Of a stretch of 53,840 nucleotides of DNA, positions 2,412 to 52,158 are shown piece by piece. The stretch is from the IMG/VR virus record IMGVR_UViG_3300031227_000060, positions 1 through 53,840 of that record; one strand, written 5' to 3'. Both the position numbers and the translations under genes were made by a program. A model generated the notes under the pieces. It had not been told where the DNA came from and did not search any database. It saw nothing but the letters and a program-made list of their open reading frames with translations. Source of the DNA: a virus. Taxonomy: Duplodnaviria; Caudoviricetes. Position 1 is the first letter of the stretch; the number at the start of each line of letters is the position of its first letter.

Positions 2412-2771
2412 CTATATATTCAACTCTTCGGTTTTGCAAGTTATTTTTGGCCTATTCATTATAGTTATTTTGTCTTTGCAATCCTTACGTTTCGGTAATG
2501 GTTTAAAGTATGCGCCCTTCATGTGCCGCCTTACCTGTGCGGTGCTTCTGTTGTTGCGCCGTCCTCTGAAAATAATTCTGTATTGATCTGGGTCAAGTTC
2601 TTTATATTTCCAAAAACCATCCTCTGTTTTTTGTAAAACTTTAACTGCAATAAAATCCATATTATGGACCAGCCCACAGTCACAGCAAGCCATTCTATAA
2701 CCTTTCATGACAGGTGTAACCCACTCACACCATTCGTCTTTTTGAGCTTTTTCTCTTTTAAGTCTTGGCAT
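2412..2771 (-). CDS. Hypothetical protein with a CCDC motif
   Basis: WCEWVTP...YRMACCDCGLVH; operon orientation. Confidence 0.6.
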   Translation of the reverse strand: MPRLKREKAQKDEWCEWVTPVMKGYRMACCDCGLVHNMDFIAVKVLQKTEDGFWKYKELDPDQYRIIFRGRRNNRSTAQVRRHMKGAYFKPLPKRKDCKDKITIMNRPKITCKTEELNI

Positions 2772-2781
2772 TTTTTAGTCC

Positions 2782-3180
2782 TTATCCGTATTCCATATCC
2801 GAAAGCCCAACACCGTCATTGTCAAGACTGTCGAGGTGTTCAGTTAATGAACTTCCCTCGCTTGCCATGCTCCTGTTTTGGTCTATCGTTTCTATATTTT
2901 GAAGCGTATTGCTGGCATTGTCGATTATGCCCAAAAGCTGGTCTATAAACTGACAAACGCCCTGGTGCCCATTGACCTGAGAACCCTCAGAAACATCATT
3001 ATATTTCCGGTAGCTTGCGAGTGATTCTTCCAAAAAATCCTTAACGGAGTTCGTTGACTGACCTGCAAACTTTAAAGCATTCAGGGCCGGTAAGTACTTT
3101 CCTTCTGCGCTTAATTGAATGATTTTCAATGCAATAACCCCTTCCCCCCTGGGAGCACGACGTTTGTTCTGACCAGCCAA
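2782..3180 (-). CDS. Hypothetical protein (start uncertain)
   Basis: ORF in the head module. Confidence 0.55.
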   Translation of the reverse strand: MAGQNKRRAPRGEGVIALKIIQLSAEGKYLPALNALKFAGQSTNSVKDFLEESLASYRKYNDVSEGSQVNGHQGVCQFIDQLLGIIDNASNTLQNIETIDQNRSMASEGSSLTEHLDSLDNDGVGLSDMEYG

Positions 3181-3704
3181 AATGGTACAGAAAGCACCAT
3201 CTCGCTAACCATTTCCTTCGCTTCGCCTATGAAATAAGCAAGTTCCTTGTCCTTGTAAATATGAAGACCTTCCTGCCAAATTTCATCCACCTGGGATTTT
3301 CTGTGCTTTGATACTCTTACACGATGTTCCCTGAACAGTTTTTTCTTTAACTTGTCATCGCTGAAGATTTTCTTTAACTTGGACAAAGTTGGGAAGAAAG
3401 AGAACTCTTCTATTTTTACAAGCTTGAACAGGTCCACACCTAAACTTTTCATGGCATATTCCACACAATCTTCAATCGCCATTATAGCACTTACCCTGTC
3501 GTCTCTCCGGATTTCATCAAGGCTTTTATACATTACAGCCCACTGTTCCTTTTCATCCTCTTCGATATCACCGAATGTCCTGTGGTCGGTAATGTTCGGT
3601 ATGTCTTGAAGAAACGCCTCTTCACCATCTACAAGAACGGTATTAAGTTTATCATGCGAACTTTCGCCTATCTTGTTGAGTTCGTCTTTAAGCTGTTCTG
3701 ACAT
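3126..3704 (-). CDS. Hypothetical protein
   Basis: AGGAGG RBS; overlaps the portal stop. Confidence 0.65.
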   Translation of the reverse strand: MSEQLKDELNKIGESSHDKLNTVLVDGEEAFLQDIPNITDHRTFGDIEEDEKEQWAVMYKSLDEIRRDDRVSAIMAIEDCVEYAMKSLGVDLFKLVKIEEFSFFPTLSKLKKIFSDDKLKKKLFREHRVRVSKHRKSQVDEIWQEGLHIYKDKELAYFIGEAKEMVSEMVLSVPFWLVRTNVVLPGGKGLLH

Positions 3705-5715: not shown

Positions 5716-6024
5716 TTACCCCTTCGGATCGTACTCAATATGAAAGTGGTTTCCTTCTAATATTACATCAAAATCTTTTCCAAGACTCTCCTTTAAGTCT
5801 TTTTCAAGGTCTTTCAGTGTGATTGTAATGCGCTTCTTCGGCCTTCTAAGGTCAATGGCTAAATCGGCATAATGAAGCGAATTTGCCCCATGATCGCCCT
5901 CGTATGTTGACGATATAACGGCTTCTCCATATCCATTCCTCTCGAAGATGTTGTCAATCAGGTCTAATTTGCGCCTGATAGGTCTTTTTAACCTCGCTAT
6001 GTCAACGCCGAGTTTTAAAAGCAT
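5716..6024 (-). CDS. Endolysin, peptidase M15-like Zn peptidase
   Basis: SLHYADLAIDL (H-x6-D) and HFHIEYD (HxH) zinc ligands. Confidence 0.75.
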   Translation of the reverse strand: MLLKLGVDIARLKRPIRRKLDLIDNIFERNGYGEAVISSTYEGDHGANSLHYADLAIDLRRPKKRITITLKDLEKDLKESLGKDFDVILEGNHFHIEYDPKG

Positions 6025-6326
6025 TATCCGTCTCCGTTCTTAATGAGTGTTTTAATTTCGCGAAGCTCCTTAAATGTCAAATCTTTTAGTGTGGTCATCT
6101 CCTGTGTAATATGTTCCCGCATTTTCAACCCCGCATTTTCACATACAAGGCCATGTTTTTCATTTGTGATATGCTCGCCACTTTTCGTTTCGAGTTTTTC
6201 TATCTTTTCATCCTGGGTCTTAGCCTTATCATTAATCTTGTTATTCTGACCCCTTAAAATAAAACCAAGTAGCCCGAATTGAGCAAAAAGTGTCGTCCCC
6301 GCTATTACTGTTACAACATCACTCAT
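6024..6326 (-). CDS. Holin-like protein (one N-terminal TM plus coiled coil)
   Basis: Hydrophobic N-terminus; coupled to the endolysin gene. Confidence 0.45.
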   Translation of the reverse strand: MSDVVTVIAGTTLFAQFGLLGFILRGQNNKINDKAKTQDEKIEKLETKSGEHITNEKHGLVCENAGLKMREHITQEMTTLKDLTFKELREIKTLIKNGDG

Positions 6327-6367
6327 TTTAAACCTCCGATCAGATTGAGTCAGTTGTCTTTATTTTA

Positions 6368-6688
6368 TTACTCCGAAGAAACAAGACGGAAACCCCCCGG
6401 AGTTGTCGGCTTTCCCAAAGACACCGAATCGCTGTGGTCACTTTCGCCTATAATATTTGATGCCGTAACAGTAAAAATAACATCAGCATCTCCACTTGGG
6501 AGAGTAAGCGATGATACAAGAATCTCTGTAACCATCCCAACGTCCTGCGGCGCTCCGTCCACATAGACAGTATATTTTTCTACAATGCCCTCCGAAGCCG
6601 TCCACGACAATGTTGTCTCTGCACTCGCTACCCCTGCCAAAAAACAAACTGCCAAAATTGCGATAAATAAAGCTTTAAACATTTTCAT
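6368..6688 (-). CDS. Secreted fibronectin-III-like protein
   Basis: Signal peptide ending GVASA; TLSWTAS...YTVY...FTVTASNIIGES FN3 pattern. Confidence 0.75.
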   Translation of the reverse strand: MKMFKALFIAILAVCFLAGVASAETTLSWTASEGIVEKYTVYVDGAPQDVGMVTEILVSSLTLPSGDADVIFTVTASNIIGESDHSDSVSLGKPTTPGGFRLVSSE

Positions 6689-29024: not shown

Positions 29025-30407
29025 TCATTCCCTTTTCATACATGGCTTCAAATTTATATTCTTCAGAATCCTTTCACCTATCCATTTCGCCACACTAACG
29101 GTCACGGCGTTTCCTAAAGTTTTATATCTCTGAGTGTCCGATATTTCTATTTTTTTTCCATTTTCGTCTATTCCGTATTTTGTCCAATCATCAGGAAAAC
29201 CTTGAAGCCTTTCGCACTCTCTTGGGGTTAGCCTCCGGACCACACTCTTTTGAACCGATAATGTTTTATTCGGGCTTCCAATCGTTAAGGATTTATCAAC
29301 CTTGTTTATATACATTCCACCATTCGGACGATCTTTTCTTTTATTGGGCCCTCCATCATTGGTATGAATATCGAAACAAACAGCGTGGCAATGAGCCTGA
29401 CTTATTGTGTTAGCAGGATCACCGTTTTTACCTATACCACTCCCCATCCTGTCTTTATCAGAGGGTCTTCCTTGTGCTGTCATGGTATTGATCGGAATAC
29501 AAATACATGGCTGTTTTAATCCACCCTGATTAGTCCTCAGCGTTGGGCTTATTCCCTTTTTTTGGATTCTTGGGGCTCCATCTTCAGAAAAAGGTTCAAA
29601 AATTACCGGGTCAGCGGTTTTTTTCTGACATATCAGCTTGTCTTCCTGGGATAAATTATCTGCATAAGGGTTAGTTGTTAAGGCGTTTACATTTGTTTTT
29701 TCCTCAATCACACAAGGAAATCTCTTTTTATCTGGCATCATCTGCCCTTTTGATAACATCGACACATCAAGCGTGTCAGTTATTTGGCTTCCGTCATAAG
29801 AACAGCTTTCAATGCCGTTTTGAGTTGTTCCGGCAACTCCTTCCCTCTTTTTTCTGCTCTCCGCAGGATTCCGCGACAGGCTTTCGGACTCAAATAAAAC
29901 TTCTGCGCTACTTCCATTTCCAAGACTTCCGACAATGAACAAACGTCTGCGTCTTTGGGCCACTCCGAAATACTGACTGTCAAGCACCCTCCAGGTTGTG
30001 CCATACCCGCATTCGACCAACCCTCCCAGGATGACTCCAAAGTCCTTTCCTTTATTGGAAGAAAGTAATCCCGGTACATTTTCAATGACAACCCAAGATG
30101 GTTGTATTTCTTCAATAATTCGATGAAAATGGAACCATAAGCCTGATCGCTCTCCAGCCAAGCCTTTCCGCTTTCCGGCAACGGACACATCTTGGCAAGG
30201 GAATCCACCGCAAATGAGGGAAACAGGCTCAAGTTTTCTTCCTCCGATTTTTTTGACATCTTTAAACCTTTTAGTATCTTTAAATTGATGTTTTAATACT
30301 GCGATTGCGTGTTTATCTATTTCACATTGCCATTTACAGGTCATACCGGCCTGTTCAAATCCAAGACCGAAACCTTCTATTCCGGAAAACAATGTGCCGA
30401 AATTCAT
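29025..30407 (-). CDS. dcm: DNA (cytosine-5) methyltransferase (probable start 30407)
   Basis: LFSGIEG (I), GGFPCQD (IV), ENV (VI), QRRRR (VIII), RRLTPRECERLQGFP (IX), LGNAV (X). Confidence 0.95.
   Translation of the reverse strand: MNFGTLFSGIEGFGLGFEQAGMTCKWQCEIDKHAIAVLKHQFKDTKRFKDVKKIGGRKLEPVSLICGGFPCQDVSVAGKRKGLAGERSGLWFHFHRIIEEIQPSWVVIENVPGLLSSNKGKDFGVILGGLVECGYGTTWRVLDSQYFGVAQRRRRLFIVGSLGNGSSAEVLFESESLSRNPAESRKKREGVAGTTQNGIESCSYDGSQITDTLDVSMLSKGQMMPDKKRFPCVIEEKTNVNALTTNPYADNLSQEDKLICQKKTADPVIFEPFSEDGAPRIQKKGISPTLRTNQGGLKQPCICIPINTMTAQGRPSDKDRMGSGIGKNGDPANTISQAHCHAVCFDIHTNDGGPNKRKDRPNGGMYINKVDKSLTIGSPNKTLSVQKSVVRRLTPRECERLQGFPDDWTKYGIDENGKKIEISDTQRYKTLGNAVTVSVAKWIGERILKNINLKPCMKRE
29780..30259 (-). 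CDS. Nested alternative-frame ORF resembling the M.EcoHK31I beta polypeptide
   Basis: GLSLKM...WSNAGMA...CSLSEVLE...LSPKACRGILRRA, same strand, inside dcm. Confidence 0.55.
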   Translation of the reverse strand: MSKKSEEENLSLFPSFAVDSLAKMCPLPESGKAWLESDQAYGSIFIELLKKYNHLGLSLKMYRDYFLPIKERTLESSWEGWSNAGMAQPGGCLTVSISEWPKDADVCSLSEVLEMEVAQKFYLSPKACRGILRRAEKRGKELPEQLKTALKAVLMTEAK

Positions 30408-30498
30408 CCTATCCCCCACGACAGATAAGAGACGCACGACCAGAAGACCCATAGCCAGTAGAATGAACCTGTAAATATTGCTGTTAAAAGTGTATTTG

Positions 30499-30819
30499 TC
30501 ATTTATCTTCCCTGGTGGGAATATTAAAATCCTTACAAATTTGCTTAATTGATTTGTCAAGCCGGGTAATGCATTCATTGCAAAACTCAACAAGCATATT
30601 TCTTCCCTTAAATTTTGGTCTTGGATAATTTCTATCTTCCACTAATCCCTTTAATCTTAAACAAACTCCGATATAATATAGGCTGTGCGCCCACGGAATT
30701 TTCGGGAACCTTGTAAATATTTTCATATCTTCAGGCCCGTTCTTTCCAGGCTCAGTATAAATTTTTTCATTATTCGGTGTTACTATGTCGTAATCCTGTT
30801 TAGCCAAACGCTTCCTCAT
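30499..30819 (-). CDS. Hypothetical protein
   Basis: Overlaps the end of the MT-A70 gene. Confidence 0.55.
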   Translation of the reverse strand: MRKRLAKQDYDIVTPNNEKIYTEPGKNGPEDMKIFTRFPKIPWAHSLYYIGVCLRLKGLVEDRNYPRPKFKGRNMLVEFCNECITRLDKSIKQICKDFNIPTREDK

Positions 30820-32654: not shown

Positions 32655-32937
32655 TTTTTCACATGATTAATTGAAAAGGAGGCGTGATGAAACAATTCAC
32701 CAGATACATATACGAAGCAATCTTTATGATCGAAATTGTTGTTCTCGGCATGATGATTCCGATTGCAACGCTTTTCAGGGGGTAGATTATGACCACCCAA
32801 GAGTTTAATAAACTGCAAGACGATATAGAAGAATATGAATGGCAAGAATATTTATGGAGGACTCTCTTTCATATCCATACAAAATATAATTATAGGGGGT
32901 CGTGGAGCCTCGAAAACTTTAAACATATGTGGGAATA

Positions 32938-33477
32938 ATGACATACGAAAACACCACAGGATTGCCAAGTGTAACCGATGTTTTATCTCCTTATATAGAT
33001 AAAAATTGGTTCACCGAAGAGTCGAGAATGAGAGGTACTGCCGTCCACGCAGCAGCGACCTGTCACGTAACTGGCGTGTGGTCACTACCTCTTGAGCCTG
33101 AATATAAGGGGTATTTAGAAAGCTTCAAAAGGTGGAGCGACCTGATGATTGACAAGGTTATCATGGTTGAGGAAAGGCTTATTAGTAAAGCCAGTGGTTT
33201 TTGCGGAAAGCCTGACTTGGTTTGCGTTTTAAAGGGCGATGAAAAATTAACTTTAGTTGATTGGAAAACGAGCGTTGCGCCTTCAAAGACTTGGCCTTTA
33301 CAAGTAGCCGCATATCGCCATTTGGCTAATTATGATAAAAAGATAGTCACGTATAGAGGACTGTGTGTCAGATTGAATAAGGACGGTAAGATGCCAAAGC
33401 CTGATGAATATATGGAATACGAGAATGATTTGAATAAATTCAAAGCAGCTTTATCGCTGTATAAACATTTTAACTAA
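32938..33477 (+). CDS. PD-(D/E)XK exonuclease
   Basis: LPSVTDVL, RGTAVH, GKPDL, LVDWKT, LQVAAY. Confidence 0.85.
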   Translation: MTYENTTGLPSVTDVLSPYIDKNWFTEESRMRGTAVHAAATCHVTGVWSLPLEPEYKGYLESFKRWSDLMIDKVIMVEERLISKASGFCGKPDLVCVLKGDEKLTLVDWKTSVAPSKTWPLQVAAYRHLANYDKKIVTYRGLCVRLNKDGKMPKPDEYMEYENDLNKFKAALSLYKHFN

Positions 33478-37126: not shown

Positions 37127-37430
37127 AATAGTTTCAATGCCCAAAAGGGGTGTGAAGGTCAGCGAACATATATGGAGAGGTCTTAAAAAATTGGTTGCTG
37201 AGAGAGATAATTTCCAATGTCAGATATGCAGTCGGAGCAGGCCGATGAATCGCCTCGATTTCCATCATATTGTGCCCAAGGGCAGATTACACCTTGGTAT
37301 CATTGAGAATATCCTCACAATGTGCCGCAGATGCCACAGGCTCTTACATGACGGATTGTTAGACGTGTCAGTGGATGATTTAATAGATAAACATAATCTA
37401 AGGCATTATTTATATGTGGAGGGGAAATGA
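37110..37430 (+). CDS. HNH endonuclease
   Basis: RDNFQCQIC...LDFHHIVP...NILTMCRRCHRLLH. Confidence 0.85.
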   Translation: MLQNRKIVSMPKRGVKVSEHIWRGLKKLVAERDNFQCQICSRSRPMNRLDFHHIVPKGRLHLGIIENILTMCRRCHRLLHDGLLDVSVDDLIDKHNLRHYLYVEGK

Positions 37431-38023
37431 TTTTAATACCTGAACTTAAAAAAATATTAATTTTAATACCGAGAACAGGCTCTACATCTTTAAAAACCGC
37501 AGTTCTTGAAAAGTATAAAAAGAGCATTTGTCTTTATAGGCACATGGAAGCTGATGGTGTTCCTTATGGGTATGACAGGTGGGAAAAAATCGGTGTTGTT
37601 AGAGATCCTGTGATAAGACTATGGAGTTTATATAAGTTTTTGAAAACCATTAATGGTGACTATCATCCGCCATATATTGATGCAATGAATGATAGTGTTC
37701 GAGATATAACTTTTTCAGAGTGGATTATTAAAAACAAAACCGTATTTACCAATCCGTATGATTCAGGCGGCAGTGATAAATATTTCCCATATTACTCCGT
37801 TCTACACTCGCTACCGGAGAATAGAAAAAGTCAGTTTATATATTTAAGGCCAGACCTGGGAACAAAGGTCTTTAAATATGAAAACTTAGACATGTTGGCT
37901 TTAAATTTAAGCATAGATATAAAGAGGCTTAATGAAACGCCTTCTGATCCGGTGCCCTGTTTAAGCGATGAGGCTCTCGATCATATCTCACGATTTTTTT
38001 CATGGGACATATCTGTGTTTTAG
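37427..38023 (+). CDS. Sulfotransferase family 2-like protein
   Basis: 5'-PSB loop LIPRTGSTS; 3'-PB VRDPVIRLWSLY. Confidence 0.75.
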   Translation: MILIPELKKILILIPRTGSTSLKTAVLEKYKKSICLYRHMEADGVPYGYDRWEKIGVVRDPVIRLWSLYKFLKTINGDYHPPYIDAMNDSVRDITFSEWIIKNKTVFTNPYDSGGSDKYFPYYSVLHSLPENRKSQFIYLRPDLGTKVFKYENLDMLALNLSIDIKRLNETPSDPVPCLSDEALDHISRFFSWDISVF

Positions 38024-38474: not shown

Positions 38475-41400
38475 TCACTCTGCCTTGCTCCGATAAACCT
38501 TATTAAAAAATCGCATTAGTTTCTCTTGCTTTCTTCTCTGCAATGCGATCATGTCCCTTTTCTTTTCTTCGCTGAATCTGGAATTCTCAATCACTTTAAT
38601 AGTTTTTCTGTATTTATTCATCTTTCTTGTAGTAGCTTCCATTATAGGGATAAGCTTTCTCTCAGCCTTATATTCTTTGGCGATTTGTACCACCCTCCTT
38701 GGGTCGTCTTTACTGTCTATTATTTGTTTCTTTACTGATTTCACACTTTCCATATTGGTGATAAATTCTGCATCAACACCCTTTTCGCTGAGTTTATCCC
38801 ACGAGACAGACTTCTCATAAATAGTCTTAACGTGCTCATTCCTCTCTTTTGTTAATTCGTCCAGCCTTTCCCTTTTTATTTCAGGTTTTAAATCAGACTC
38901 ATATATCGATTTAATTTTCTTATTAATAGCCGTAAGCTTCCTTTTTACATCGCTAAATTCCTCTTTTGCCTTAAATTTACCAACGTTCTTTTGAATCAGG
39001 CTCGCGGCTTTTAAATGTTCCCCGGTTTCCTGAAAGTGTCGCATACCCCTTACAAGCTTATTGATTTCGTCTGAGGTTTCATAAAAATGCCTCATGTATT
39101 TTGTATTCCTGACCGGCTTGTCACGGCGAACAAATCCACCCGTACCTATAATGTCATCGATTATCATCTCTGGATTTTCCGGAAAGTCAAATAGATAGTG
39201 TGTGACAATATCCGTGGAGCCCAGCAAGAACATTCCAAACGTGCTAAAATATCCCCTTACAAGAGCTTCAGCGCGTTTAGGGGACATGTTCATAGCTCCG
39301 CCCATGACTTGCATTGTTTCGCTCGTCCAAGGGTCAGCCTGTTGTCCTGCGGGTAAACCCTGAAGCCCCATCCCTACTATTGGACGGCCTGTGAATGTGT
39401 TTTTGTTGGCCCATTGTTCCATTAAAGGCTTTACGGCTTGAGGCCAATCTAATGAAAACACGTCTCTGGCTGCGTAACCCATAAAATCAGCGATGTGTTT
39501 TGTGTCCTCGTTTCCGTTCATAACATTCGCCATTGTCTCTGGAAGTGTTGAAAAAACAACGCCTGTCTCAAAGGGTTTTGGAATTCTATAATGAGTTTCA
39601 CCTAACCAGAAGTGATAATATGTCCATTTTTCCCAATCTTCCATTTCTTTATATCGCTCGTCGTCTTTAAATAACGACCATAAAGCTATTGAAGCCACTG
39701 ACAGCATACCACCTTTTAACATAAAGGCCTTCTTGTCTGATTTATATCCTCTTCCCATTCTATATAAACCCTGCATTCGAGCATTTAAGAAGGGAATTGT
39801 CCGGATTAAGAACTGAACAGCACCAGACCCACCGCTCATACTAAAATCCATGATATCTCGAGCAGCGAACGCAGCCCCGAGTTGAGTTTCACCTTTTGCA
39901 AGCTTATTTTCCATAAGCATGATTCTCGCTGCATTTTCAGAAGCAGCACCTATCTTGTCCCAAAAATCCAGCAGTCTTTTAGGAGAATTTAGTATAATAT
40001 TTTTAGGTCCCTCGGCTTTCATTACCCTTCTAACATATCTCGCTCCAGCTTCAGGGTCATCATTCACATATGATCCACCAAAACCAGCACCGGAGGCCAT
40101 AAATTCAATCCAATCTTGATCTTCGCGCATGGACTTTATGAAGCCTTTAAAAGAATCGTAAAACGGTTTAAAGTCTTTCTCGACTATTGAGGTATGTAAA
40201 GTGTCCCTTAGCACGTTTCTGATTCTAAATCCTGGTCCGAATGTAGCCCCATAGGATAGCCATCTTTTTGTTTTACCCATGAAGTTTATAAGCACGTTGT
40301 CCATCTTATTGACGTTCACATTCGCTAATGCCTGGAATAAGTCAGGGTCATGGACTTTAAAGTAGACAGGTTTTCCTTCTCTTCTGAATGTAAGAACATT
40401 GTCGGCCTGTCTCATTTTATTGGTAATGTACTTTGAAACACCTTCTTTATATTCTATTTCTTCAATAACTTCAGAGCCTATTTCCTGTGAAGCGTCAAAA
40501 GCTGCTGCCCGAGCTTTGTTCCTTATAGATTCATGGATTAAATGCAGCCAGTTATGTAAATAGTTTTCGACAGGATCTCCAAGCTTCTGATCGGCACCCT
40601 TTAGTTTTTTAATCTGCGCTGAAATATGTTTATTTGAAAGTCTCGGGCCTGTTAAAAATTCGTCTCTGGCAAGTTCGTTCTCGAATATTCTATAAAAAGG
40701 TACGTAAAAGTCAGACTGCCATTCTTTTCTTGCCACGGGGTCTATAAGACCAGCCTCGACAGCTACGTCCAGTATGTTTGAATTGAAATCCTGTAGCTTC
40801 TTGGAAGCCTCAATCATCTTTTTATCAAGAGGAGAACCAGCCCATTCAAATATTTTCTTTCTCGCGTCTGCATCAAGCCATCTTTCCCGGCCTTCGCCTT
40901 CGAGAACCCCTGCTCTTTTAGCTGCAGTCCAGTATAGAAGTTTCTCCCAATCTTTCCCTAACGATCTCAGGAACGGAAGAACGCCCTCGTTTTTAGTTTC
41001 GACAGTAAAAACACCTTCCTTCCATTTTAACTTGCCATGCTCAAGAAACGTTCCAAAAGGCATCATAAAACCAGTTTCCATTCTATGAAGTTGATAAGGA
41101 AAATCACCGAGTTGGGTTTTGATAGGTCTTAATTTATCAAGACCTTTCGTTATGGCTTTGTCAAGAAGCTCGTCTCGTTTCTCTTTTACCTTAATGCTTT
41201 GGATTGAATCTGTTACTTTTTCATCCCATGTTTTTACTGATTTCCCGAACTTCTGGTCTATTATGTCCGGCTTTTTCACCTGATACAAAGGCATCCCTTC
41301 TCTGAGGGCCTTTGATTTCATTTCTGGGGTTATTGGGAGTGAAAATAAAATTTGTTTTTCTTTCTTGCTGTTTATCCCCCGTTGTGGTAAGCTATTTATA

Positions 41401-44400
41401 TTTTCAATAAACCTTTTTACAGCGAAAGGAGTAACGTCATGGCCGATGGAAGAAGCGATAGAGGCGTGCAACACACTGTCTTTTGTGACATCTGCGGAAA
41501 AAGTATCATCAGGCACACTTATGAACTCAAGAAAACCTCCACGTTTTTCTGCTCTAATGCTTGTGCCGGGATAAATTCCAGAAACAGAATCGACATCACC
41601 TGCCAAGAGTGCGGAAAGGTCTTTAAAAAACCCTTGTCCAGGCTTGGTAAGGTTAAGTTTTGTGGTAAGGAATGCTACACGCTTAATCAAAGAGTCGGCT
41701 ATATCGCTACTGATGGGCATCGTGCCGTTACTATCAACGGTAAGGATGTCAAAGAGCATCGACTCATTATGGAGAAGCATATCGGGAGAAGCCTCGCCCC
41801 TGATGAAATCGTTCACCACACCAACGGGGATAAGCTCGATAACCGCATCTCTAATCTCAGCATTGAGAGCAGAAGTTCTCACGCCATCAAGCACCGTCCG
41901 CTTAGTTGGAATATCGAGGCCGCTAAAGCCCTTAGAAAGAAAGGGCTCTTTTTTCGTGAGATCGGTAAGAAACTCGGGGTCAATGCCACCACTATCCACC
42001 GGCAGTTTCAGAAAAGGGGCATCCCTACGAATTGACTTTTTCTGGTACATTATATTTGGCTCAGTTGGGGAGAACGTGCCTCTGTTGTAGATTGATTTTA
42101 TTTGAGTTGGGAAAAAAGCAATGTAAGAATCTTCGGCGTTGGCTTTTATGTGCCCCTGGTATTCTTTTTCTCTCGTTTGATATTCTTTATATTCTGGAGT
42201 TTTTTGTTCCTCGGCAGAAACTCGACTCGGAAATTTTTTCAGTATCTTGTCGAAAGCTTTATCCCTTCGTCTTATATATTCATTCAAGCCTTTAACTTCG
42301 CCTGTGTTTGTATAAACAATACCATCAAAGCCTTTCTGTTGGATTAAATCACGTATGTTTTTTAATTTAGTTGCAGGATGAGAGGCTGACATGGCCCTAT
42401 CAACTTCGGCTTCAGAAAAATATTCTCGGAGCCGATGCGTTTTTAGTTCATATTCAAGGTTTTCAGCGTCCCACCATCCGGCATCATCAAGCCTTAAAGG
42501 GTTTTTAATGGTGAGATAAACAGGCATTAGATTCTGTCCTTCTGTCGGCCTGTCTCTGTCTCCAAGATATGATATTCTGTCGATAGCCTGTCCTTCTGTG
42601 CCGAAGTGAATGCCAATATCGTTCCGTCTCTTTTTAAATCGGTCAAAAATTGCAACCGTCCCATGATAAACCACCAAGGGCTCACCGTTCTCATCAACAA
42701 CCTTTGATTTCCCAAACCACTTCCCAAACTTAGGATTATCCAGAATACTCTTAATGGCCTGTGCTAACGAATAAGAAGGGCTTACTGCAAAGTCAAATAC
42801 CGGAGAAGTTTTACTATCAAAAACTTTCCCTGACTCAACATCTTTAGTAATCCCTCTCGCAGTCCTCTTGAACAAATTAACTAAGCTATCAATAAAGTCG
42901 GCTATCTTCTGCAATACTCTACCGACAGGAGTTCCACGATAATTCTCACGGTTTTCGAGTTCTTCCGCTATAAATGTGGCCCTCTTTTCCTTGTCTCCAA
43001 GCTTGGTGGGACCGTGTTTTTTAATGTATGCGTTCTTGAGGACGTTCAATTCGAGGTTATTTAAAAGGCCTGCTTCCTCAATAAAATGTGTAGATTCATG
43101 GGCAAGCGTGAACTTGTCACCAATGCCTTTTACAATCTTTATTATTCCCTTATGTTCTCCTGATTCAAACTCAAACCCTTGATAAGAGCCAGCTATCTTT
43201 TCACCAGCGCCCCTAACCTTACCATAGGCTATCTTAAATTCGGCTTCATCTGAAGCGATTTCATTAACTTCCGTAATAACTAAGGCGTGACCACCGGTTG
43301 TCTTGACCCAAATATCGCCATCAGAATTCAAACCTACCGATTGACCTTTAAATAAGGATTGAGCGTCTTTTAGGGTTAGCCCGGAGTCTGATATTTTTGT
43401 GGAATAGAGCTCAACGCCCTTATCGGTTTCCCTTGACTCCATCACTTCAAACAGATTATTAAAGGCCGAACTGACGCTATCTATTTCGCTATCCAATAAA
43501 TATGGATACATATCCGTGGCGGTCAACGAACCGGACAATAATCCTTCAAGCATGTCCTGTGAATATTCGCCCGATGAAACTATGTTAGCAAGATAGTCAT
43601 TAACATTTGTTCGCTCAGACAACTTTTCAATAACGTAACTTTCAAAAGCCCTCGCTGTCATTTCGATACGTGTTGACCAGTACGGCTTAGTCCTTCTCTT
43701 GTCGAGTTCCTCAGACCGTTTTTTCATTCCAGTCGAATCAACGGTTTTTATAAGCCCATTAAACGCCTTGAGTAGTTCTTCCCTTATAGAATCGTCTTGA
43801 GTCTTACGTGGTCGATCTGTAATATATTCATGCTTCACGCCTCGTTTTCTGGAAAAGTAATTATCCAGAGCATGAAACCATTCATGGGCAAGGGAACCAG
43901 GACCGTTCTTTTTTGTTAAGTTGATGACTATCTTTCCGGGTTCATAGTGTGCAGAAGGAGCCTGTTTGCCACCATGCCCCCTCGAACCGAAGCCTATTCC
44001 GAGCTCTCCGTTTAAAGAAATAGCTTTGGCAGGAATATCAAGGATAACTGACAGGTCTATCAAGGCATCATAAGCCCTGTTGAGATTGTCCTGTCTTTCC
44101 TTATCGTTAACCCAATTACCAAACTCAACGCCACGAAAACCGAGCGCTTCATTGAACATTTCAGGAGTAACGTCTTTACCGTTCCTATGATCTTTTCCGA
44201 TTCGTTCTCTATTAACAGCCCTGCGTTCATCTGGAATGGTTTTATATTGTTTTAACTTTTCTTCTAATTTTTCCTGATTGGCTTTAAGGTATTCCCTTGC
44301 CTCTTTAGTTGAATCAAATTTCTCAAGGTCAATATAGTTCCGGCCTATCTTTTTTCCGATATAAGTTCCCTTTTCACCATGCTTGGAATACATATTAAAT

Positions 44401-47400
44401 CTTACGCCTTTGGACTTTTTAACTGTGTCGAAAGTAGCATAGTTTTTCTTAAAGTTTTCAAGGGTTTCCTCTTTTGTATTTCCCTCGGCAAGAATGGTCG
44501 GCATGTTGGAGAACAGTGTTGCCTTGCGGCTTTTACCGACCTGCCATTTTGTTACGTTTTTTTCGCCCTTATATAATGACCAATGGTGTTTTTCAAATGT
44601 TACGCCCTTGAGTGACTTGTCATGTCCAACAGCAAGGTAGAGGTCTGCCCTGCCGCCAACACCAGTTCTAAGCGCAGATCGGTCTTTTTCATCAAGTTTA
44701 GTTTTTATTTGTTCTTTCGTAATCTTATCATTTATCAGGTCGTCAGCAAACCCCCTAAGCATTTCTACCTGATTAGTCCACGTTCTTAGCTTCCAACTTT
44801 GACGAGGTTTCGCAGGGATCTCGTCTCTGGCCGACCGAACGAAAGCAACTACCCATGGATCTACGCCATCCTCGATTAGCTTTTCATAGTTGGGTTCGGG
44901 CCATGCCTTAGACAATGGAACAGAAGCTATGTCCATGTCTTTTGCAGCCGTCATTTTATCGGAATACTCAGCGTAATAATCCTTTCTCGCACCGCCTATT
45001 TTTTCTCCGAAGTCTTCAATTTTGTCGGTTTCTTTCTGCTCCGGCTTCTTGGTTGCGACCTGATATAACGAATCAATTTTTGGTGATAAAATATTCTGTG
45101 CGGCGGAGCTTAAATCTTCCCATTTCGACTCCGATATTTTTTCTCCGAGTTTTGATAATTTTCCTTTTTTTGTTACCCAACCGCTATCTGAAACAAGAGA
45201 CACTTTTCTTCCAAGCTTTATCTTATTATCCCAATATTCTTGGTAGTTCCTTGTGGGAGTGCTCAAAACCGCCTCTCGCGAGACGGCTTCAATATCTGTT
45301 TGTACGCTTGGCACATCAGGCTCTTTGGCTGCTTTCTTGGGAAGGTCTATCGGATTTCTATCTCGCAAATCTTGAACCGTTTGCTTCAATGCGTCCTTAA
45401 ACTTCTTAGAAGGCTTGCCCTTACCGTCCCACTTTTCGTTAATTAAAGAAGCCCTATAAGCTAATTCCCTTGCATCCTTAGATGTTAATTCGCCCTGCAC
45501 CGCCATTGTTGAAGAGATATGTGCGACCACATAATTATCACCTTTAACATCTTTGTGATAAGCATAATCGCCCATAGCCATGACAGGAACACCTGCTCTT
45601 GAAACGCTGCCGTCTGTGGCGAGGATGTCAAGTTTCTGTTTCTTGGCCTTGGCCTTTTTTAAAGCCTCCACGATTTGAGGTTCATTGCCTCTCATGCGCT
45701 GAAGATTTTTTAATATTTCATCGTCCCCTTTCTTTTTTTCCGCTGCCTCTTTGGTCGTTGTCTCCGTTTTTTTAGCCCGCACTATCTTTTCTTTGTCAAT
45801 ATGTTTTTGTAACCCTGGATCTGAAATCTCTAATTTTTCTAAAGATGTATGAAAAGCGCCAGGATATTTTTCAGCAAACTTCCTGAGCGCAGCATCTTTT
45901 GACACAGACATACCAGTCATTGACGATTCCCACTCGTTACTTGAACCAGCTTTCCGCATTTGCACTTGATGGGTCAACTGAGGGGCATCTGTTACGTTTA
46001 TTCTCCCAACACGAAATTCATACTCAATGTCACCAGACTTATCTACGGCTATGATTTTTGAACCGCCCTTCTTCTCCCATTCTTTAGGTAGTCCAATCCT
46101 TTCACCCTTTATATCAGCGCCGACCTGTCCTGTCTCAGCCTCTTGAATGTTACGAGACAGTTTTAAGTGTTCACTTACCGACAAATCAGGAAACCGCTTT
46201 TTAATTTCAGCAAACCTTTCCATCGAGCCTAATTTTGCAAGGTCTTTATTGTCTTCGACGGTAGGCTGTTTTAAAACTTTGGGTTCTTGTTTTGGTAAAA
46301 CCTTACCTTTTACCAACTTTCCAGGCTTCTCAACCTTCTCTTTGGGCTCCGCTTTTTGTAGGTCGGGATAATCCTTGAGTACAGATTCGGGAACTGGCTT
46401 GCCCTGTTGGATGGCATGTTGAACTTCTTCTTTGTGTCGATTATATTCATCAATTAACTTAGTATTAATCTTTTTCTTATGGTCGAAGGCTTTTGATTGT
46501 GCATCTTTCTTCGTTTTATGCTTTGTTGGGAAATCCACGCCAGACATAGACGTTGTGACCCAATGTTTCTTACGACCTTCTATAACTTGCTTAATGGAAT
46601 TTAATGGAGAATAATTATCAATTTGTTCTTTTGTAGCACCCACTATTTTTACAGACGATTCATCCCTAGTCATCTCCCACGGTTCTTTGGCTTTTTCCTC
46701 AGCCTCAACCTCCAAATCGGCTTCAGGTTGAACGATTTCTGTTTCAGGCACACTAACACCCTCATCAACAACCCTTTCGCTGCCCTCAACAGCCCCTTCG
46801 TGCTCAGGGCCCTCCATAATGGTTCCGTCTGGCATCTCATGGACAACTTCGGCCTTCTCAGCCCACGGCATTTCAGAAACAGGCTTGGTCTTTCTCTTGC
46901 CGTCAAATGCCCACTTCTTAAATTCATCCATGGACATTTCAGTTATCCCGGCTCCACCGTTCCAATTTTCGGCATAATTACTCTGGTATAATTTAGCAGC
47001 CTCTTCTTGAGTATCAGCGCCAAGAATTACCTTCAATTCATCGAAGTTTCCCTTTTCATCAACTTGATCGACTATAAATACCTTTGGGCTTGTTTCTGTC
47101 CCGGGCTTAACGAATATATCAAGATAATCTTTGTCGGCCCCCAAGACTGAGGGCAAATAGCCATAATGCGCGGTCATCTCCTGCTGCCATTGTGGAGGAT
47201 CATTCTGTTTATCGGTTCTAACTGAACCCTGTGGATTCTCAATAGATATTTTCAGGCCATCAACTTCAACATGGCCGAGTTTTGCATTATTCGCCTCAAT
47301 TTGTTTATCGGTAGGCTCTGGCCTTTCATTTAACGGAGAGCTTGCCGCCTCATTCGCCTCAACGTCAAGCTCTCCCATCTGAGAAAGATCAACCAAGGGC

Positions 47401-48821
47401 TCCGGCTCTATTTCTGGTTCTATCTCAGGCTGATATACGTCCTCTTGTGGCAACCCTCTTAAATCAGGCACGCCTTCAGGAGTTGTGAATATGGCTTCTT
47501 TCCTTTTGGCCTCTTCCTGCAATTCCGCTTGACGTTCGGCCTTGGCTTGCTGCTGCCGTTTTATTTCATATTCCATGTCAGCGGCTTCTTGCTCAACAGC
47601 CCGAGCATCAGCTTCCTCTTCTAAATCAATGGCTCTCTCAACGTCCTTCATTGGATCAATTAGATTTATGGCTTGCTGTGTCTGATCTCTTTGCTGAAAT
47701 AATGGATCCGCCTGAACACCAGGAGGTGTCCCTGTTGGAATCGCCTGTTCCGGTGCCTTTTGTTCTTCCATAAAGTCAGTAGATTGGTCTTGGGATATTG
47801 GTTCTAATGACACCGCTGGTTTTAAAGCCCTATATGTTCTGTCAACAGCAATAGCACCACCACCCATAATCCCGGTAGTAATAGCGGTAACAGGGGCAAC
47901 CTCTTTGGCAACCTCCATAGTCGTCTTGGGTTCACTCAGTCCAAGCAGCACCTCTATAGGGTTTTGTAATTTTCCGGCTGCAATTTCTTGGGCTTGCTCC
48001 TCGGTCATGGTAGCAGCACCACGGAAAATTCCTCGTGTTACCTTGTTTTCGGCAAGCATTTTAAATATCTTACCACCCATTCTGCCAGTAATAAGTTTGA
48101 ATCCCACCATGTTGCCAACGCCTTCTGTAACAGCTTCAATAAGAGCGTGTTTTGTGGTCGCAGAATTAACATTTTCAGCAAAAGGTAGCCATTCGGCTTC
48201 AGTAAAAGGAGGCAGTCCCTTTTCGGCTCTGTCATAATTGGCTGCGTCTCGAACTTCCGTAACAATTTGAGACTTTGCCATATTAAAGGTAGCTCCGCCC
48301 ATCGCAACCATAGGAATAGCTGTTGTTGCGCCCGGAACAGGAACAGGTATAGAGGCTAATGCAGATGCGCCTCCAACTGCTGCTACCGTAACACCGTAGC
48401 CTAGCTGGCTCATGGCATCTACCACATGGTCAGAGGTAAGTCCTAAAAAAGAATCATAAGGATTTACATGGCGCTTCTTTTTATACGCTTCTATTTCACT
48501 ACGGCTTTCCGCCCTTAATCTGCCTGCTGCGGTAGTTTCGTCAACGGCATGAACTGTAGGATCTACAATAGAGGCAATATTAGCTTTTACTTGTCCCGGC
48601 AAGGTCATAAGGCCAGAGCCAAATGCTCTCGCAGCGTCCACAATACCACTTCGTGTAGCAGCTACGTGTTCCCCTAAACCGGCTTGTTCTGCAAACTCTT
48701 CGTATCCGACTCCACCAGCTTGCAATTCGGGATTGGAATTATAAACCTTTCTTGTGAGTTCTTGAGGATCTGTGTCTGCATGCTCTGGATTTTCCTGTAT
48801 GAATTGACCGATATTAAACAT
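38475..48821 (-). CDS. Giant polyvalent (injected internal virion) protein, 3448 aa
   Basis: InPase-like ([22 protein letters not shown]); LPD5-like ([14 protein letters not shown]); LPD1-like ([27 protein letters not shown]); HESTH zincin; ART-PolyVal-like ([16 protein letters not shown]); LPD38-like C-terminus (RIPKPFETG). Follows the ejection genes. Confidence 0.85.
41365..41431 (+). promoter_or_regulatory. Promoter and RBS of the nested HNH gene
   Basis: TTGCTG-17bp-TAAGCT with extended TG; AAAGGAG 7 nt before ATG 41439. Confidence 0.65.
41439..42035 (+). CDS. HNH homing endonuclease (Zn fingers, HNH, HTH), nested antisense in the giant gene
   Basis: [33 protein letters not shown]...[36 protein letters not shown]. 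Confidence 0.92.
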
Positions 48822-48875: not shown

Positions 48876-50909
48876 CTAAATTAAACCTGAAGCTTCTTGC
48901 TTTTTGAGTTCTTCAATGCGCTGTTGAGCCTTCGCATAATCGCTTCCTGCTCCACGTCCGGCAATACCCGACTGACCACCAACATCCACACCAAACTTGT
49001 TCTGCGCTATTATATCGCCTACCGCGACGTTGCCAGCGCCATAATCCTGTGCTATTGTATCGCTTACCGCAGAGAATTTCCTGTTTGCGGTTGCGCCCAC
49101 ATGCTCTTGTGTTACTTCCGGTGCCATTTTAAAAGGGTTCCGAGTTTCAGCCCCGCCACCTTTCCCCCAATATTTTTTATAGTTTTTAGAAAACCATGCA
49201 GCTTCTTTTTCAGTATTGAACTGTATCAAATTTCCACTTTCCTTGGCGTGAGCCCACGCCTCATCGTCTGAAAATTGCTTTAATCCTTCATTAGTCTCTA
49301 CAATCGTTGGATAAACATAAAAGTTTCCATCTGCCTCACCATAAGCCATTAAATGCGTTCCTGTTTCTCCCTCACCGAGACTAATCGCCTCTTGTCCTTC
49401 TCCCTGTAATATTCTTTGCACGAAAGGCTTGTCTTTATTTGCATTCAGAATTTGACTGATTTTTCCTATTTCCCCACCTTTATCAGTCCCCCCCTCAGGT
49501 GTGTCAGACGCACCCATTTTGCTTGACACATCAACAGCTTGCGTTCTTGGCAACATAGACTTTATAAGCTGTATGGTTTGATTGGCAAGATTCTTTTCTA
49601 GCTCTGAGCCTGTTTTAGCAAGACCTTCTATATAATCAATGTTAGTTTGCAGTTTTGCCTGGGTTTCTGGAGAAATCTCGCCCTTTGAAGCAGCAAGTTC
49701 GGCTTCAGCCTCTTCTATATCTCTATCAGTCTCAGAAAGCTTTTCTTTATTCTCATTGCTTAAAGCTTTTAACTGTTTGATATTAAAGTTTATAATATCA
49801 TATTTTGATTTCCTTTCTATGTTTCTTATTTCCAATGCGGTCTTCACAGCTTTCTGTCCTGGTTTTTTGCGATACCCTTCTTTTCTAATATCTTCTTCGG
49901 TGAACGGTGTGCCGTCTGGTTTATTGTGAACCCCCCCATCTTTATAAAATTTCCGATCAACCTCGCCAGAGTCGTTAATCAACGGAAGAACCTCTATGTC
50001 TTCAGCGCCTTCTTTTGAAAACCAAACACCTTCTCCGATTAGAGTTTTTGCGTTTGCATCGTTTATGGTTTCTCTTCTTTTTATGTCCAATGGGAAAAAT
50101 ATTTCTTGCTTGGAAAAATGATCCATAAACCCCATGGCTTGTTTAGCATTCACAGTTTTAATAAATTTCTTGTCCTGGCCGTCTTCTGAAAAGAGTATGT
50201 CTGCCGATTTTCCATCCTGACTTATTTCGGCTGAATAAGGAGAGTTTGTACTATTGACAATCTTAGCCGCCTCCCTGATAACAGCCTGATTATTGCCTTC
50301 TTTCCAATAAGAGCCCATGGTTTTCTTTGCCTCAAGAACCCTTTGGTATGATGCAAACAGGTTGCCATTGGTTATTTCCTTCATATCAGCTTTACCTTCT
50401 GCTGTTTTTCTATATTTTAGAGAAGCATTAGCGGCACCTGTAGACGCTGCCCTTCCCTGTGTGTCCGGATCATACCAGTCCTTCTTGACGTTTGAATCAA
50501 AATTAATTAGTTTCGTTTTGTCAGCAAGGAATAAAGACTCAAAATGTTTTTCCATGGACGTTTGATCCAATTTTTTAATCTTTGCCTGTCCGGTTTTTAA
50601 CTCACCATACTTTTTTACAACAGCCGTCCACTGTGTTCCTGTTAAGCCCTCAGGTTTGGATATCTTGTCAATCGGTATAGCTTTTTCTCTCACTACATGA
50701 CGAGGCGTAGCCCTGCCCGGAGTTCCTTCTGTGATAACGTCTTTATATTCTGTTTGAACGCTTTCTTTCCCTATGTGCTCTAAACCAGTATCGACAGCCT
50801 GCCTGTTTTGTCGATCTTCCTCCCTGTCTTGTGCTGCGCCAACCTGTCTTAGCGCACCAGCAAACCCTATGCCAGCACTATATAATTCTCTTCCTAATTC
50901 GTCTACCAT
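48876..50909 (-). CDS. Internal virion/ejection protein
   Basis: Helical charged 677-aa protein between the small ejection genes and the giant gene; GAGGTG RBS. Confidence 0.6.
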   Translation of the reverse strand: MVDELGRELYSAGIGFAGALRQVGAAQDREEDRQNRQAVDTGLEHIGKESVQTEYKDVITEGTPGRATPRHVVREKAIPIDKISKPEGLTGTQWTAVVKKYGELKTGQAKIKKLDQTSMEKHFESLFLADKTKLINFDSNVKKDWYDPDTQGRAASTGAANASLKYRKTAEGKADMKEITNGNLFASYQRVLEAKKTMGSYWKEGNNQAVIREAAKIVNSTNSPYSAEISQDGKSADILFSEDGQDKKFIKTVNAKQAMGFMDHFSKQEIFFPLDIKRRETINDANAKTLIGEGVWFSKEGAEDIEVLPLINDSGEVDRKFYKDGGVHNKPDGTPFTEEDIRKEGYRKKPGQKAVKTALEIRNIERKSKYDIINFNIKQLKALSNENKEKLSETDRDIEEAEAELAASKGEISPETQAKLQTNIDYIEGLAKTGSELEKNLANQTIQLIKSMLPRTQAVDVSSKMGASDTPEGGTDKGGEIGKISQILNANKDKPFVQRILQGEGQEAISLGEGETGTHLMAYGEADGNFYVYPTIVETNEGLKQFSDDEAWAHAKESGNLIQFNTEKEAAWFSKNYKKYWGKGGGAETRNPFKMAPEVTQEHVGATANRKFSAVSDTIAQDYGAGNVAVGDIIAQNKFGVDVGGQSGIAGRGAGSDYAKAQQRIEELKKQEASGLI

Positions 50910-51171: not shown

Positions 51172-52158
51172 CTAATATACGTCAATCGCAGGCCCACTTG
51201 TCACGCCTGTTTCTAATCGTTTAAAGCTTTCTTTTTCAGCGTCGGTTCTTGCTTGTGTTCTTGCGCCTGCCAATTTGCTACCGAAAGCAAGACCTTCTTC
51301 AGAAAAAGCCTGCTGGCCTCTTCCTTCTCCTGGGTCAGCACCATATCGGCTTAAATTCAGAGCCGCACGTTCACCACCACCCTTGAACGCTTTGGCTACG
51401 TCACCGCCTGCCTGTGCAACTCTTTTTTCTGAATCAACGCCCTCTAAAGCTGATTTATAAAATGCTTCGGTTACAGGCTTTCTAAGACCTATATTTGTCT
51501 CTTGTTCGGATAGAAGCCCCCCTGTGAGCCTTTCCCGCTGAGGCAATAATCTTAACGCCGCCTCGGACTCAGCTGTACTCAACCCGGCTTCCGCAAGCTT
51601 GGCTTTTATTTCGGCTTCGGGAAGCCCTGCATCCTTGCCGAGCTTAATTATTCTTTGTGCCTCTTCTGCTGCATCTGTTCCCAAATCAGCCTCAGCTATG
51701 CCTTGCGCTGTTAAAGAGGGAATCATTTCAAGATTAGCGCCTATCTGCGCGGTAGTCATGTCCATAAAGGATGGCGGAGGATTCTCAAAGTCGTAAGCAA
51801 ACTCTTCGGTGTCCCCCCGGCGAATCATCTCAACGCCTTCCGGAGCGCCAGTACCTTCGGGAACATCTGACACCCATACTTCTGTGTCATTGAAATCATT
51901 AGACCTATCTCCCTGTACTGTTTCATAGTGTCCGGTTGAAGTATCCCCTTCTACTGATTCAGTCTTGTCAACTGGAGCAGCACTGGCAATAAACTCACCA
52001 GTGCCAGGATCTATATACCCCTTTTCGTTGGGATCATAGTTAACTCCAAACCAAGCAAAGTTTTTGAACTCCTTGGCCCACTCCTGCTGTTCCTCGGAAA
52101 GTTCGAGCATTCCTGCGTTAAAAGCCGCGTCGAATGTATCTCCACTGCCACCGCCCAT
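51172..52158 (-). CDS. Internal virion/ejection protein
   Basis: MGGGSG start, Ala-rich, LSRYGADPGEGR; position in the virion module. Confidence 0.6.
   Translation of the reverse strand: MGGGSGDTFDAAFNAGMLELSEEQQEWAKEFKNFAWFGVNYDPNEKGYIDPGTGEFIASAAPVDKTESVEGDTSTGHYETVQGDRSNDFNDTEVWVSDVPEGTGAPEGVEMIRRGDTEEFAYDFENPPPSFMDMTTAQIGANLEMIPSLTAQGIAEADLGTDAAEEAQRIIKLGKDAGLPEAEIKAKLAEAGLSTAESEAALRLLPQRERLTGGLLSEQETNIGLRKPVTEAFYKSALEGVDSEKRVAQAGGDVAKAFKGGGERAALNLSRYGADPGEGRGQQAFSEEGLAFGSKLAGARTQARTDAEKESFKRLETGVTSGPAIDVY

Follow-up and report, generated by a model that had tools for sequence, protein, structure and literature searches.

Homing endonuclease genes are taught as persisting through self-splicing introns, inteins or intergenic sites. 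Within a coding gene, the mobE endonuclease of Aeromonas phage Aeh1 (the case of Friedrich et al. 2007) is free-standing and reportedly splits its host gene, nrdA, into two genes and two polypeptides. A further arrangement is the ShiLan domain, an HNH endonuclease hidden out-of-frame in a mycobacteriophage DNA methylase gene (Arsenault, Gosselin, Gogarten 2025, PMC11855218), which, going by the accessible part of that article, is the nearest published case to the element described here. The stretch of DNA analysed (the window) is the whole virus record IMGVR_UViG_3300031227_000060, 53,840 bases long with an estimated completeness of 95%, and the element is an HNH_3 endonuclease gene lying antisense inside the record's largest gene, which encodes a giant polyvalent protein. 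From its sequence and that of its relatives, we consider it likely that this is a selfish gene, antisense and in register in the giant gene, read through by the host frame and spreading by homing, with higher confidence in translation through the insert than in active homing. The interpretation offered by the initial annotation, a homing endonuclease tolerated by dual coding, is supported. The main parts of the locus are as follows.

Positions 38475-48821, minus strand: host gene, the record's largest, encoding a 3448-amino acid (aa) phage polyvalent protein (P0003) with 0 cysteine.
Positions 41439-42035, plus strand: HNH_3 endonuclease gene, 198 aa, with two zinc (Zn)-finger-like CxxC pairs, an HNH core and a C-terminal three-helix helix-turn-helix (HTH).
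Positions 41349-42035, minus strand: antisense-derived segment of the host protein, aa 2263-2491, whose 229 aa include a single Tyr and neither Cys nor Trp.
Positions 41349-41438, plus strand: HNH leader of 90 nucleotides (nt), corresponding to host aa 2462-2491, with 0 stops in the host frame.
Positions 41424-41430, plus strand: Shine-Dalgarno sequence AAAGGAG, 7 nt ahead of the ATG.

The HNH and host frames use identical triplets, as had been claimed from the divisibility of 48821-41441 by 3 (7380, or 3 x 2460), and the host reads the HNH stop codon TGA as Ser (residue 2263) and its ATG start as His. Over 41349-42035, the in-register antisense frame contains 0 stops, including across the leader upstream of the HNH gene, which the initial annotation had correctly described as stop-free in the host frame, and the other two antisense frames contain 10 and 27. 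A host stop would appear in the HNH gene as TTA, CTA or TCA, and our codon count agrees with the earlier one in finding none of these among the 12 Leu codons (CTC 7, CTT 4, TTG 1) and 13 Ser codons (AGC 4, AGT 3, TCC 3, TCT 3). In the codon reference, which comprises 13,191 codons from 29 other open reading frame (ORF) pieces in the window, TTA and CTA account for 38.0% of Leu and TCA for 24.6% of Ser, and TTA and TCA are the window's commonest codons for these residues. The GC and AT skews also reverse sign across 41450-42050.

A free-standing HNH gene lying between two genes, with its antisense frame open and in phase by chance, or a chimeric assembly, could give the same picture, and in any gene it is the in-register antisense frame that most often stays open; in addition, 4 of the 90 unique HNH records described below have an antisense frame open across the ORF yet lie outside any giant. 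Against this, the probability of the HNH protein sequence avoiding TTA, CTA and TCA under window usage is P = 8e-5 from stop avoidance alone, before the 1-in-3 phase and the 30-codon leader (stop-free by chance with P ~0.17) are taken into account, and the longest in-register antisense-open run among the 29 reference ORF pieces is 135 codons. Contigs of other salt-lake metagenome runs cover 41381-42116 and 41077-41359 (X2) and 41201-41381 (X7) with 0 differences, and because they match both junctions an assembly artefact is excluded, which answers the reservation that reads might not support the assembly. With the layout present in 27 distinct cassettes and the avoidance of Cys, discussed below, as an independent signal, we regard accident or artefact as barely credible.

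The arrangement recurs well beyond this window. In a blastp search of the giant's homologues with the antisense segment, the same segment was found in P0074, P0009, P0041 and P0097 at quite different positions, with a conserved antisense motif, IPVDVVDNL, that mirrors VHHIDGN of the HNH protein. A search with the antisense alignment gave 16 IMG/VR loci, 15 of which have an HNH ORF in the same register within an open frame of 1091-3167 codons. Such a search is biased toward open frames and was hence repeated with the HNH protein alignment, from which the best 80 of 552 confirmed viral loci were kept. The in-register antisense frame extends across the match in 28 of these 80 loci and falls short of it in 52; it reaches at least 1000 codons in 16, including 12 of the 13 top matches; the other matches are ordinary free-standing HNH genes, the antisense frames of which close within 7-199 codons. 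Removal of duplicates left 90 unique HNH records, comprising 27 embedded cassettes, 59 free-standing genes and 4 intermediate ones. The register is identical in all 27 embedded cassettes, and no other antisense register open for at least 600 codons was found among these loci. Depletion of the three codons relative to free-standing homologues, a comparison proposed in the initial annotation, is complete: TTA and CTA make up 234 of 814 Leu codons (29%) in free-standing genes vs 0 of 476 in embedded ones, and TCA makes up 149 of 733 Ser codons (20%) vs 0 of 385, so that the free-standing relatives use these codons freely. Searched exhaustively and without a profile, the antisense peptide matched 222 protein clusters at E <= 1e-3; among the 150 clusters listed, 123 are of at least 1000 aa and 12 are shorter than 350 aa, the antisense ORF having been called alone. 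The embedded state is strongly clustered when mapped on a tree of the 90 HNH proteins, requiring 5 changes compared with a mean of 23.5 after shuffling, a value matched in 0 of 500 shuffles; the window's HNH falls inside an all-embedded group of 11, and embedded lineages have diverged to 35-47% HNH identity with the open frame kept. At the nucleotide level, a blastn search in "distant" mode with 40800-42700 found no match in the phage collection. Two loci from these searches deserve separate mention. The HNH gene of L025 (match at 6001-6555) is nested in embedded lineages as sister to L027 (Shimodaira-Hasegawa-like approximate likelihood ratio test 94) with an antisense frame open for only 234 codons, and may be an escaped cassette or belong to a decayed host gene. 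L048 (match at 6001-6318) has an HNH gene of the free-standing type with a sense +1 frame open for 636 codons through the gene, which could be a same-strand ShiLan-like arrangement or an accident of high GC content (0.62).

A second codon filter bears on the protein encoded by the host frame. The giants are nearly devoid of Cys: P0003 has none in 3448 residues, the flanks of the embedded hosts have 16 in 49,368, and 119 homologues average 0.042%, with 71 of them lacking it altogether; the value for the other ORFs of the window is 1.42%. In the shared register, a host Cys would be GCA or ACA in the HNH gene and a host Trp would be CCA. Among the embedded HNH genes, 1 of 339 Ala codons is GCA and 1 of 284 Thr codons is ACA (together 2 of 623), 11 of 153 Pro codons are CCA, and the window's HNH uses none of the three. 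The shares of GCA, ACA and CCA among Ala, Thr and Pro codons are 28%, 34% and 34% in free-standing relatives and 18%, 19% and 23% in the hosts' own genes. Antisense Phe, Tyr and Trp are likewise two to six times rarer in embedded than in free-standing antisense frames. Because the mirror peptide follows the Cys-free rule of the host protein, the insert is most likely translated as part of the giant; removal at the RNA level would not yield a filter on Cys codons, which argues for translation through the insert. The absence of Cys may itself reflect a constraint on packaged and ejected proteins. The two upstream neighbours of the giant gene, at 48876-50909 and 51172-52158 (both minus strand), are also Cys-free, with 0 of 678 and 0 of 329 residues.

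As initially annotated, neither an intron nor an intein signature is apparent. Rfam models had no match within 40500-43000 at E <= 1 and showed no ribozyme core around the HNH ORF, only ~170 nt of the insert lie outside that ORF, and no Hint or intein family matched P0003 at E <= 0.01 (Pfam). A positive control was available within the window in the form of a group I intron (RF00028, Intron_gpI) at 276-506 on the minus strand, detected as a full-length model match with 80.3 bits and E 6.9e-19. This intron has been described as ORF-less and as lying in the capsid gene; the idea that the HNH protein could be its trans-acting partner was discarded, the two being 41 kb apart with nothing connecting them. 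That the phage splices RNA elsewhere does lend something to the proposal that the insert is removed by an undescribed mechanism (a new type of intron, long-range ribosomal bypass or protein-level excision) and that the peptide is absent from the mature giant, and translation of the segment is, after all, a deduction. Polyvalent proteins are also thought to be processed into units, to judge from the accessible part of Iyer 2017 (PMC5512222), so that post-translational trimming is possible. Yet removal at the RNA level would place no selection on an open frame, found together with the common register in 27 of 27 embedded cassettes, nor give any reason to avoid antisense Cys, and the Rfam and Hint searches point the same way; proteolytic trimming after translation would be compatible with a read-through insert and is hardly a rival. 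Overall, we consider removal of the insert very improbable.

The embedded gene itself is intact and under selection. ORF calling, Pfam and PHROGs agree with the initial annotation on a 198-aa Zn-finger/HNH/HTH gene on the plus strand inside the 3448-aa ORF: Pfam identifies HNH_3 (PF13392) at residues 107-148 with E 3.3e-10 (family cut-off 24.8 bits), together with an HTH_38 match at E 8e-4 that is under the family cut-off, and 12 HNH-endonuclease families of PHROGs match, the best with E 1.4e-17. Two CxxC...CxxxC pairs lie N-terminal to the HNH core, and the catalytic columns H107, R108, H126, H127, N135, N139, H148 and H152 are without variation in 19 aligned sequences. The structure model has a predicted local distance difference test score (pLDDT) of 87.7. 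A PDB sequence search with the HNH profile returned two weak matches in the HTH region only (E 4e-4 and 4e-3) and was uninformative. With invariant catalytic residues and a confident model, the protein looks functional, and cleavage is predicted. The AAAGGAG ribosome-binding site (RBS) is present as described, and GGAG occurs at a comparable spacing ahead of the start in most other cassettes.

The surroundings of the insert in P0003 are summarized below.

Pfam domains of P0003, in aa: InPase 506-637, LPD5 1424-1559, LPD1 1706-1796, ART-PolyVal 2043-2246 and LPD38 3054-3224.
Positions 42036-42730, minus strand: ART-PolyVal module (about aa 2031-2262), which in the host sense immediately precedes the cassette.
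Positions 41268-41348, minus strand: 27-aa motif (LPITPEM...GMPL), host aa 2492-2518.
Positions 41251-41272 and 42040-42061, no strand assigned: imperfect direct repeat, 17 of 22 nt, with a spacing of 789 nt, bracketing the insert and encoding PDIIDQK and PNIMYQK.

P0003 combines many unrelated effector and LPD domains, five of them recognized by Pfam, in one giant phage polypeptide, as polyvalent proteins do. Pfam and alignment place the insert where the initial annotation had it, between the end of the ART-like domain (...PNIMYQKK, including the NIMYQ noted there) and a conserved C-terminal module. Conservation among these giants is highest in the module that follows the insert in the host sense, and a stop within the insert would therefore be costly. 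The earlier estimate of about 230 aa added to the protein fits the 229-aa mirror segment; measured against homologues the insert is slightly longer, ~256 codons (aa 2263-2518). Where Pfam domains are known, in six hosts, they do not overlap with any cassette. The cassette is found in 6 of 119 giant homologues, at aa 89, 874, 1040, 1087, 1245 and 3017, and is absent from the nearest relatives, P0004-P0008 and L097. Two giants that carry it, P0132 and P0133, resemble P0003 only over aa 2256-2520, with 55-56% identity. The element is thus sporadically present among close relatives and occurs in unrelated contexts, and this disjoint distribution at varied positions fits the pattern expected of a mobile element.

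Several candidate signals of insertion were considered and set aside. Both copies of the 22-nt repeat are ordinary host motifs, also found in the cassette-free P0005 and P0004, which speaks against a target-site duplication. A pattern G[MLIV]P[LMFIV][YFM] as a universal flanking target was present close to the end of the cassette in just 3 of 152 hosts; because of this, LPITPEM...GMPLY appears specific to the window's sub-lineage and is no general target. A form of the motif with 18 letters before a final [YF] closes a domain in many polyvalent proteins (P0004, P0008, P0005, P0006, P0120, P0025, P0118 and P0069), and short DNA stretches encoding it (41290-41333) recur in further contigs from these metagenomes, where the sequence to either side is unrelated. 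A joint from 42111 to 42658, skipping the 546 nt of the ART core, is seen in one contig each of X5 and X7 with a shorter side of 29 nt, and probably derives from other polyvalent genes sharing conserved ART edge motifs.

The distribution also bears on whether the HNH protein has been domesticated to serve the phage, by cutting the DNA of co-infecting relatives or of the host or by helping the terminase, with regulated antisense expression and with its positions set by module shuffling. Long branches within all-embedded groups show the embedded lineages to be old and stable, this genome has only one HNH of the family, and polyvalent proteins do vary by whole modules, as when L097 differs from P0003 in ART, cassette and motif together; a similar possibility is raised for ShiLan in section 4.2, within the accessible part of PMC11855218. 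On the other hand, presence in so few homologues and absence from all the nearest ones fit an element that can be dispensed with, giants otherwise sharing nothing have cassettes that are 55% identical, and the terminase lies 24 kb from the HNH gene. A domesticated nuclease therefore seems to us rather unlikely.

In the scenario we favour, that of a selfish and read-through insert, an I-HmuI-like HNH_3 gene would settle at a domain junction of a giant polyvalent-protein gene, on the opposite strand, using the one antisense register that shares the host triplets. Because TTA/CTA/TCA, GCA/ACA and CCA all have synonyms, the HNH gene keeps its own protein while the host frame stays open, Cys-free and Trp-poor; it would be only in this register that host stops, Cys and Trp each fall on single HNH codons with synonyms, at no cost to the nuclease. 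Ribosomes on the giant messenger RNA would translate through the insert (aa 2263-2491 and the 27-aa motif) into the C-terminal LPD38 module, giving the giant as one chain, while an antisense transcript carrying the gene's own RBS would supply the HNH protein and the cassette would spread via DNA cleavage and repair.

A number of observations weigh against this scenario or parts of it. The LPITPEM motif accompanies the cassette in P0132 and P0133, yet it ends a host domain in HNH-free giants, and because of the latter the 5' boundary of the cassette is uncertain. The HNH-free alleles and junctions called for in the initial annotation were obtained in part: cassette-free giants exist, and an exact empty allele was not found in the relatives searched. 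In P0005 the ART end is joined straight to the C-terminal module, in a protein only ~50% identical. L097 (2376-5475), the closest relative with DNA, is 85% identical to P0003 over aa 1806-2001 (a peptidase-like module) and 76% over 2512-3336 (the C-terminal module), differs in its N-terminal half, which contains an NPPF methylase-like stretch, and has 12 aa in place of 510 in P0003, lacking ART-PolyVal, the cassette and the 27-aa LPITPEM...GMPL motif together; on sequence comparison, this indel could equally be module shuffling instead of homing. No contig joining across 41345-42045 was found in X2, X5, X6 or X7, the uncovered parts in X5-X7 being uninformative. The backbone of the HNH tree is weak (43 of 87 inner branches unresolved), and because of this the embedded copies do not count as independent of one another and share their codon habits partly by descent. 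With regard to the enzyme, the top Foldseek match in the PDB is the homing endonuclease I-HmuI (1u3e_M, prob 0.99) but is weak, with E 0.011 and template modelling scores of 0.29/0.33. The promoter ascribed to the HNH gene by the initial annotation could not be recovered: a sigma-70 scan of 41000-42400 returned zero plus-strand sites, and alignment of six cassette upstream regions revealed no conserved block except the RBS and start codon. No terminator follows the HNH stop, the plus-strand terminator-like sites lying within or upstream of the ORF. Finally, the antisense segment is not plainly disordered. Its AlphaFold model has a mean pLDDT of 65.1, with confident helices at residues 20-130, 116 of 229 residues at pLDDT >= 70 and 76 below 50, and no match among PDB folds; on this model the segment could have a role of its own. 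Disorder of the proposed antisense-derived linker is thus only partly borne out, making "benign spacer" a safer term than "disordered linker".

The comparison with L097 also raises a tentative idea, to which we assign a low probability, namely that cassettes at domain junctions drive module shuffling in polyvalent proteins by cutting cassette-free relatives during co-infection, repair then copying the cassette along with neighbouring modules. A possible product of such an event here is the block of ART-PolyVal and the LPITPEM motif, present or absent as one 510-aa unit relative to L097. If this were true, a selfish nuclease would be a motor of domain mix-and-match in phage anti-defence giants.

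Other genes in the record include a terminase, a portal/adaptor and an internal virion protein (PHROGs). A C-5 cytosine DNA methylase is encoded at 29025-30593 on the minus strand (Pfam E 3.7e-70) and a PD-(D/E)XK nuclease-like ORF at 32929-33477 on the plus strand (E 1.2e-4); adjoining the giant gene, at 37427-38023 on the plus strand, is a weak sulfotransferase-like ORF (E 0.0096, under its cut-off).

From a wider point of view, these cassettes would represent another route by which a homing endonuclease gene can live inside genes, on the opposite strand and in the register where synonymous choice avoids host stops, Cys and Trp, with the host translating through. They would offer a natural and widespread case of long antisense dual coding with a signature of selection measurable on both strands, and a connection, open to testing, between selfish nucleases and the way in which phage polyvalent proteins evolve by modules. 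Gene callers miss the cassette and the HNH is never annotated, so that part of many "giant protein" sequences would be the mirror image of a nuclease. The near-total absence of Cys from the giants is, in its own right, a useful constraint on packaging and ejection.

How the locus relates to described systems can be put as follows. Intron- and intein-borne endonucleases such as I-HmuI of phage SPO1 (PDB 1u3e) belong to the same enzyme class and also live in an important gene without destroying it, but they are removed by RNA or protein splicing, whereas here the frame is kept open and no ribozyme or Hint domain was found in the searches above. As in the case of mobE, a homing endonuclease gene free of intron and intein reportedly sits in a functional coding gene, with the difference that the reading frame here is continuous. 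The host gene, with its InPase, LPD5, LPD1, ART-PolyVal and LPD38 domains, resembles the polyvalent proteins of Iyer et al. 2017 (PMC5512222), in the accessible text of which the terms homing, intein and linker are absent and HNH appears once, in an unrelated context. The cox2 fission described in PMC5374615 is, from the terms present in the searchable part of that paper, a different arrangement. In the literature searched, from which supplements and subscription journals stood apart, an antisense in-register HNH gene within a coding gene was not found. The ShiLan domain shares the most with the present locus: an HNH in a phage coding gene, a stop-free host frame, no intron or intein features, a sporadic distribution and an insert thought to be translated, in that case as an extra loop (PMC11855218, accessible part). 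According to the same portion of text, ShiLan is read from another frame on the same transcript, lacks an RBS and has a GTG proposed as a leaderless start, and a term search there did not return the words antisense, reverse, opposite strand or complement. In contrast, the HNH gene of the window lies antisense to its host in triplet register and has a GGAG RBS and an ATG of its own, and the hosts are giant Cys-free polyvalent proteins in which the cassettes also filter antisense Cys and Trp. Judged from sequence, the locus would therefore be a splicing-free "hidden HNH" insertion of the ShiLan kind that is here antisense, register-locked and subject to a protein-level codon filter, and that appears to be widespread in giant phage proteins.

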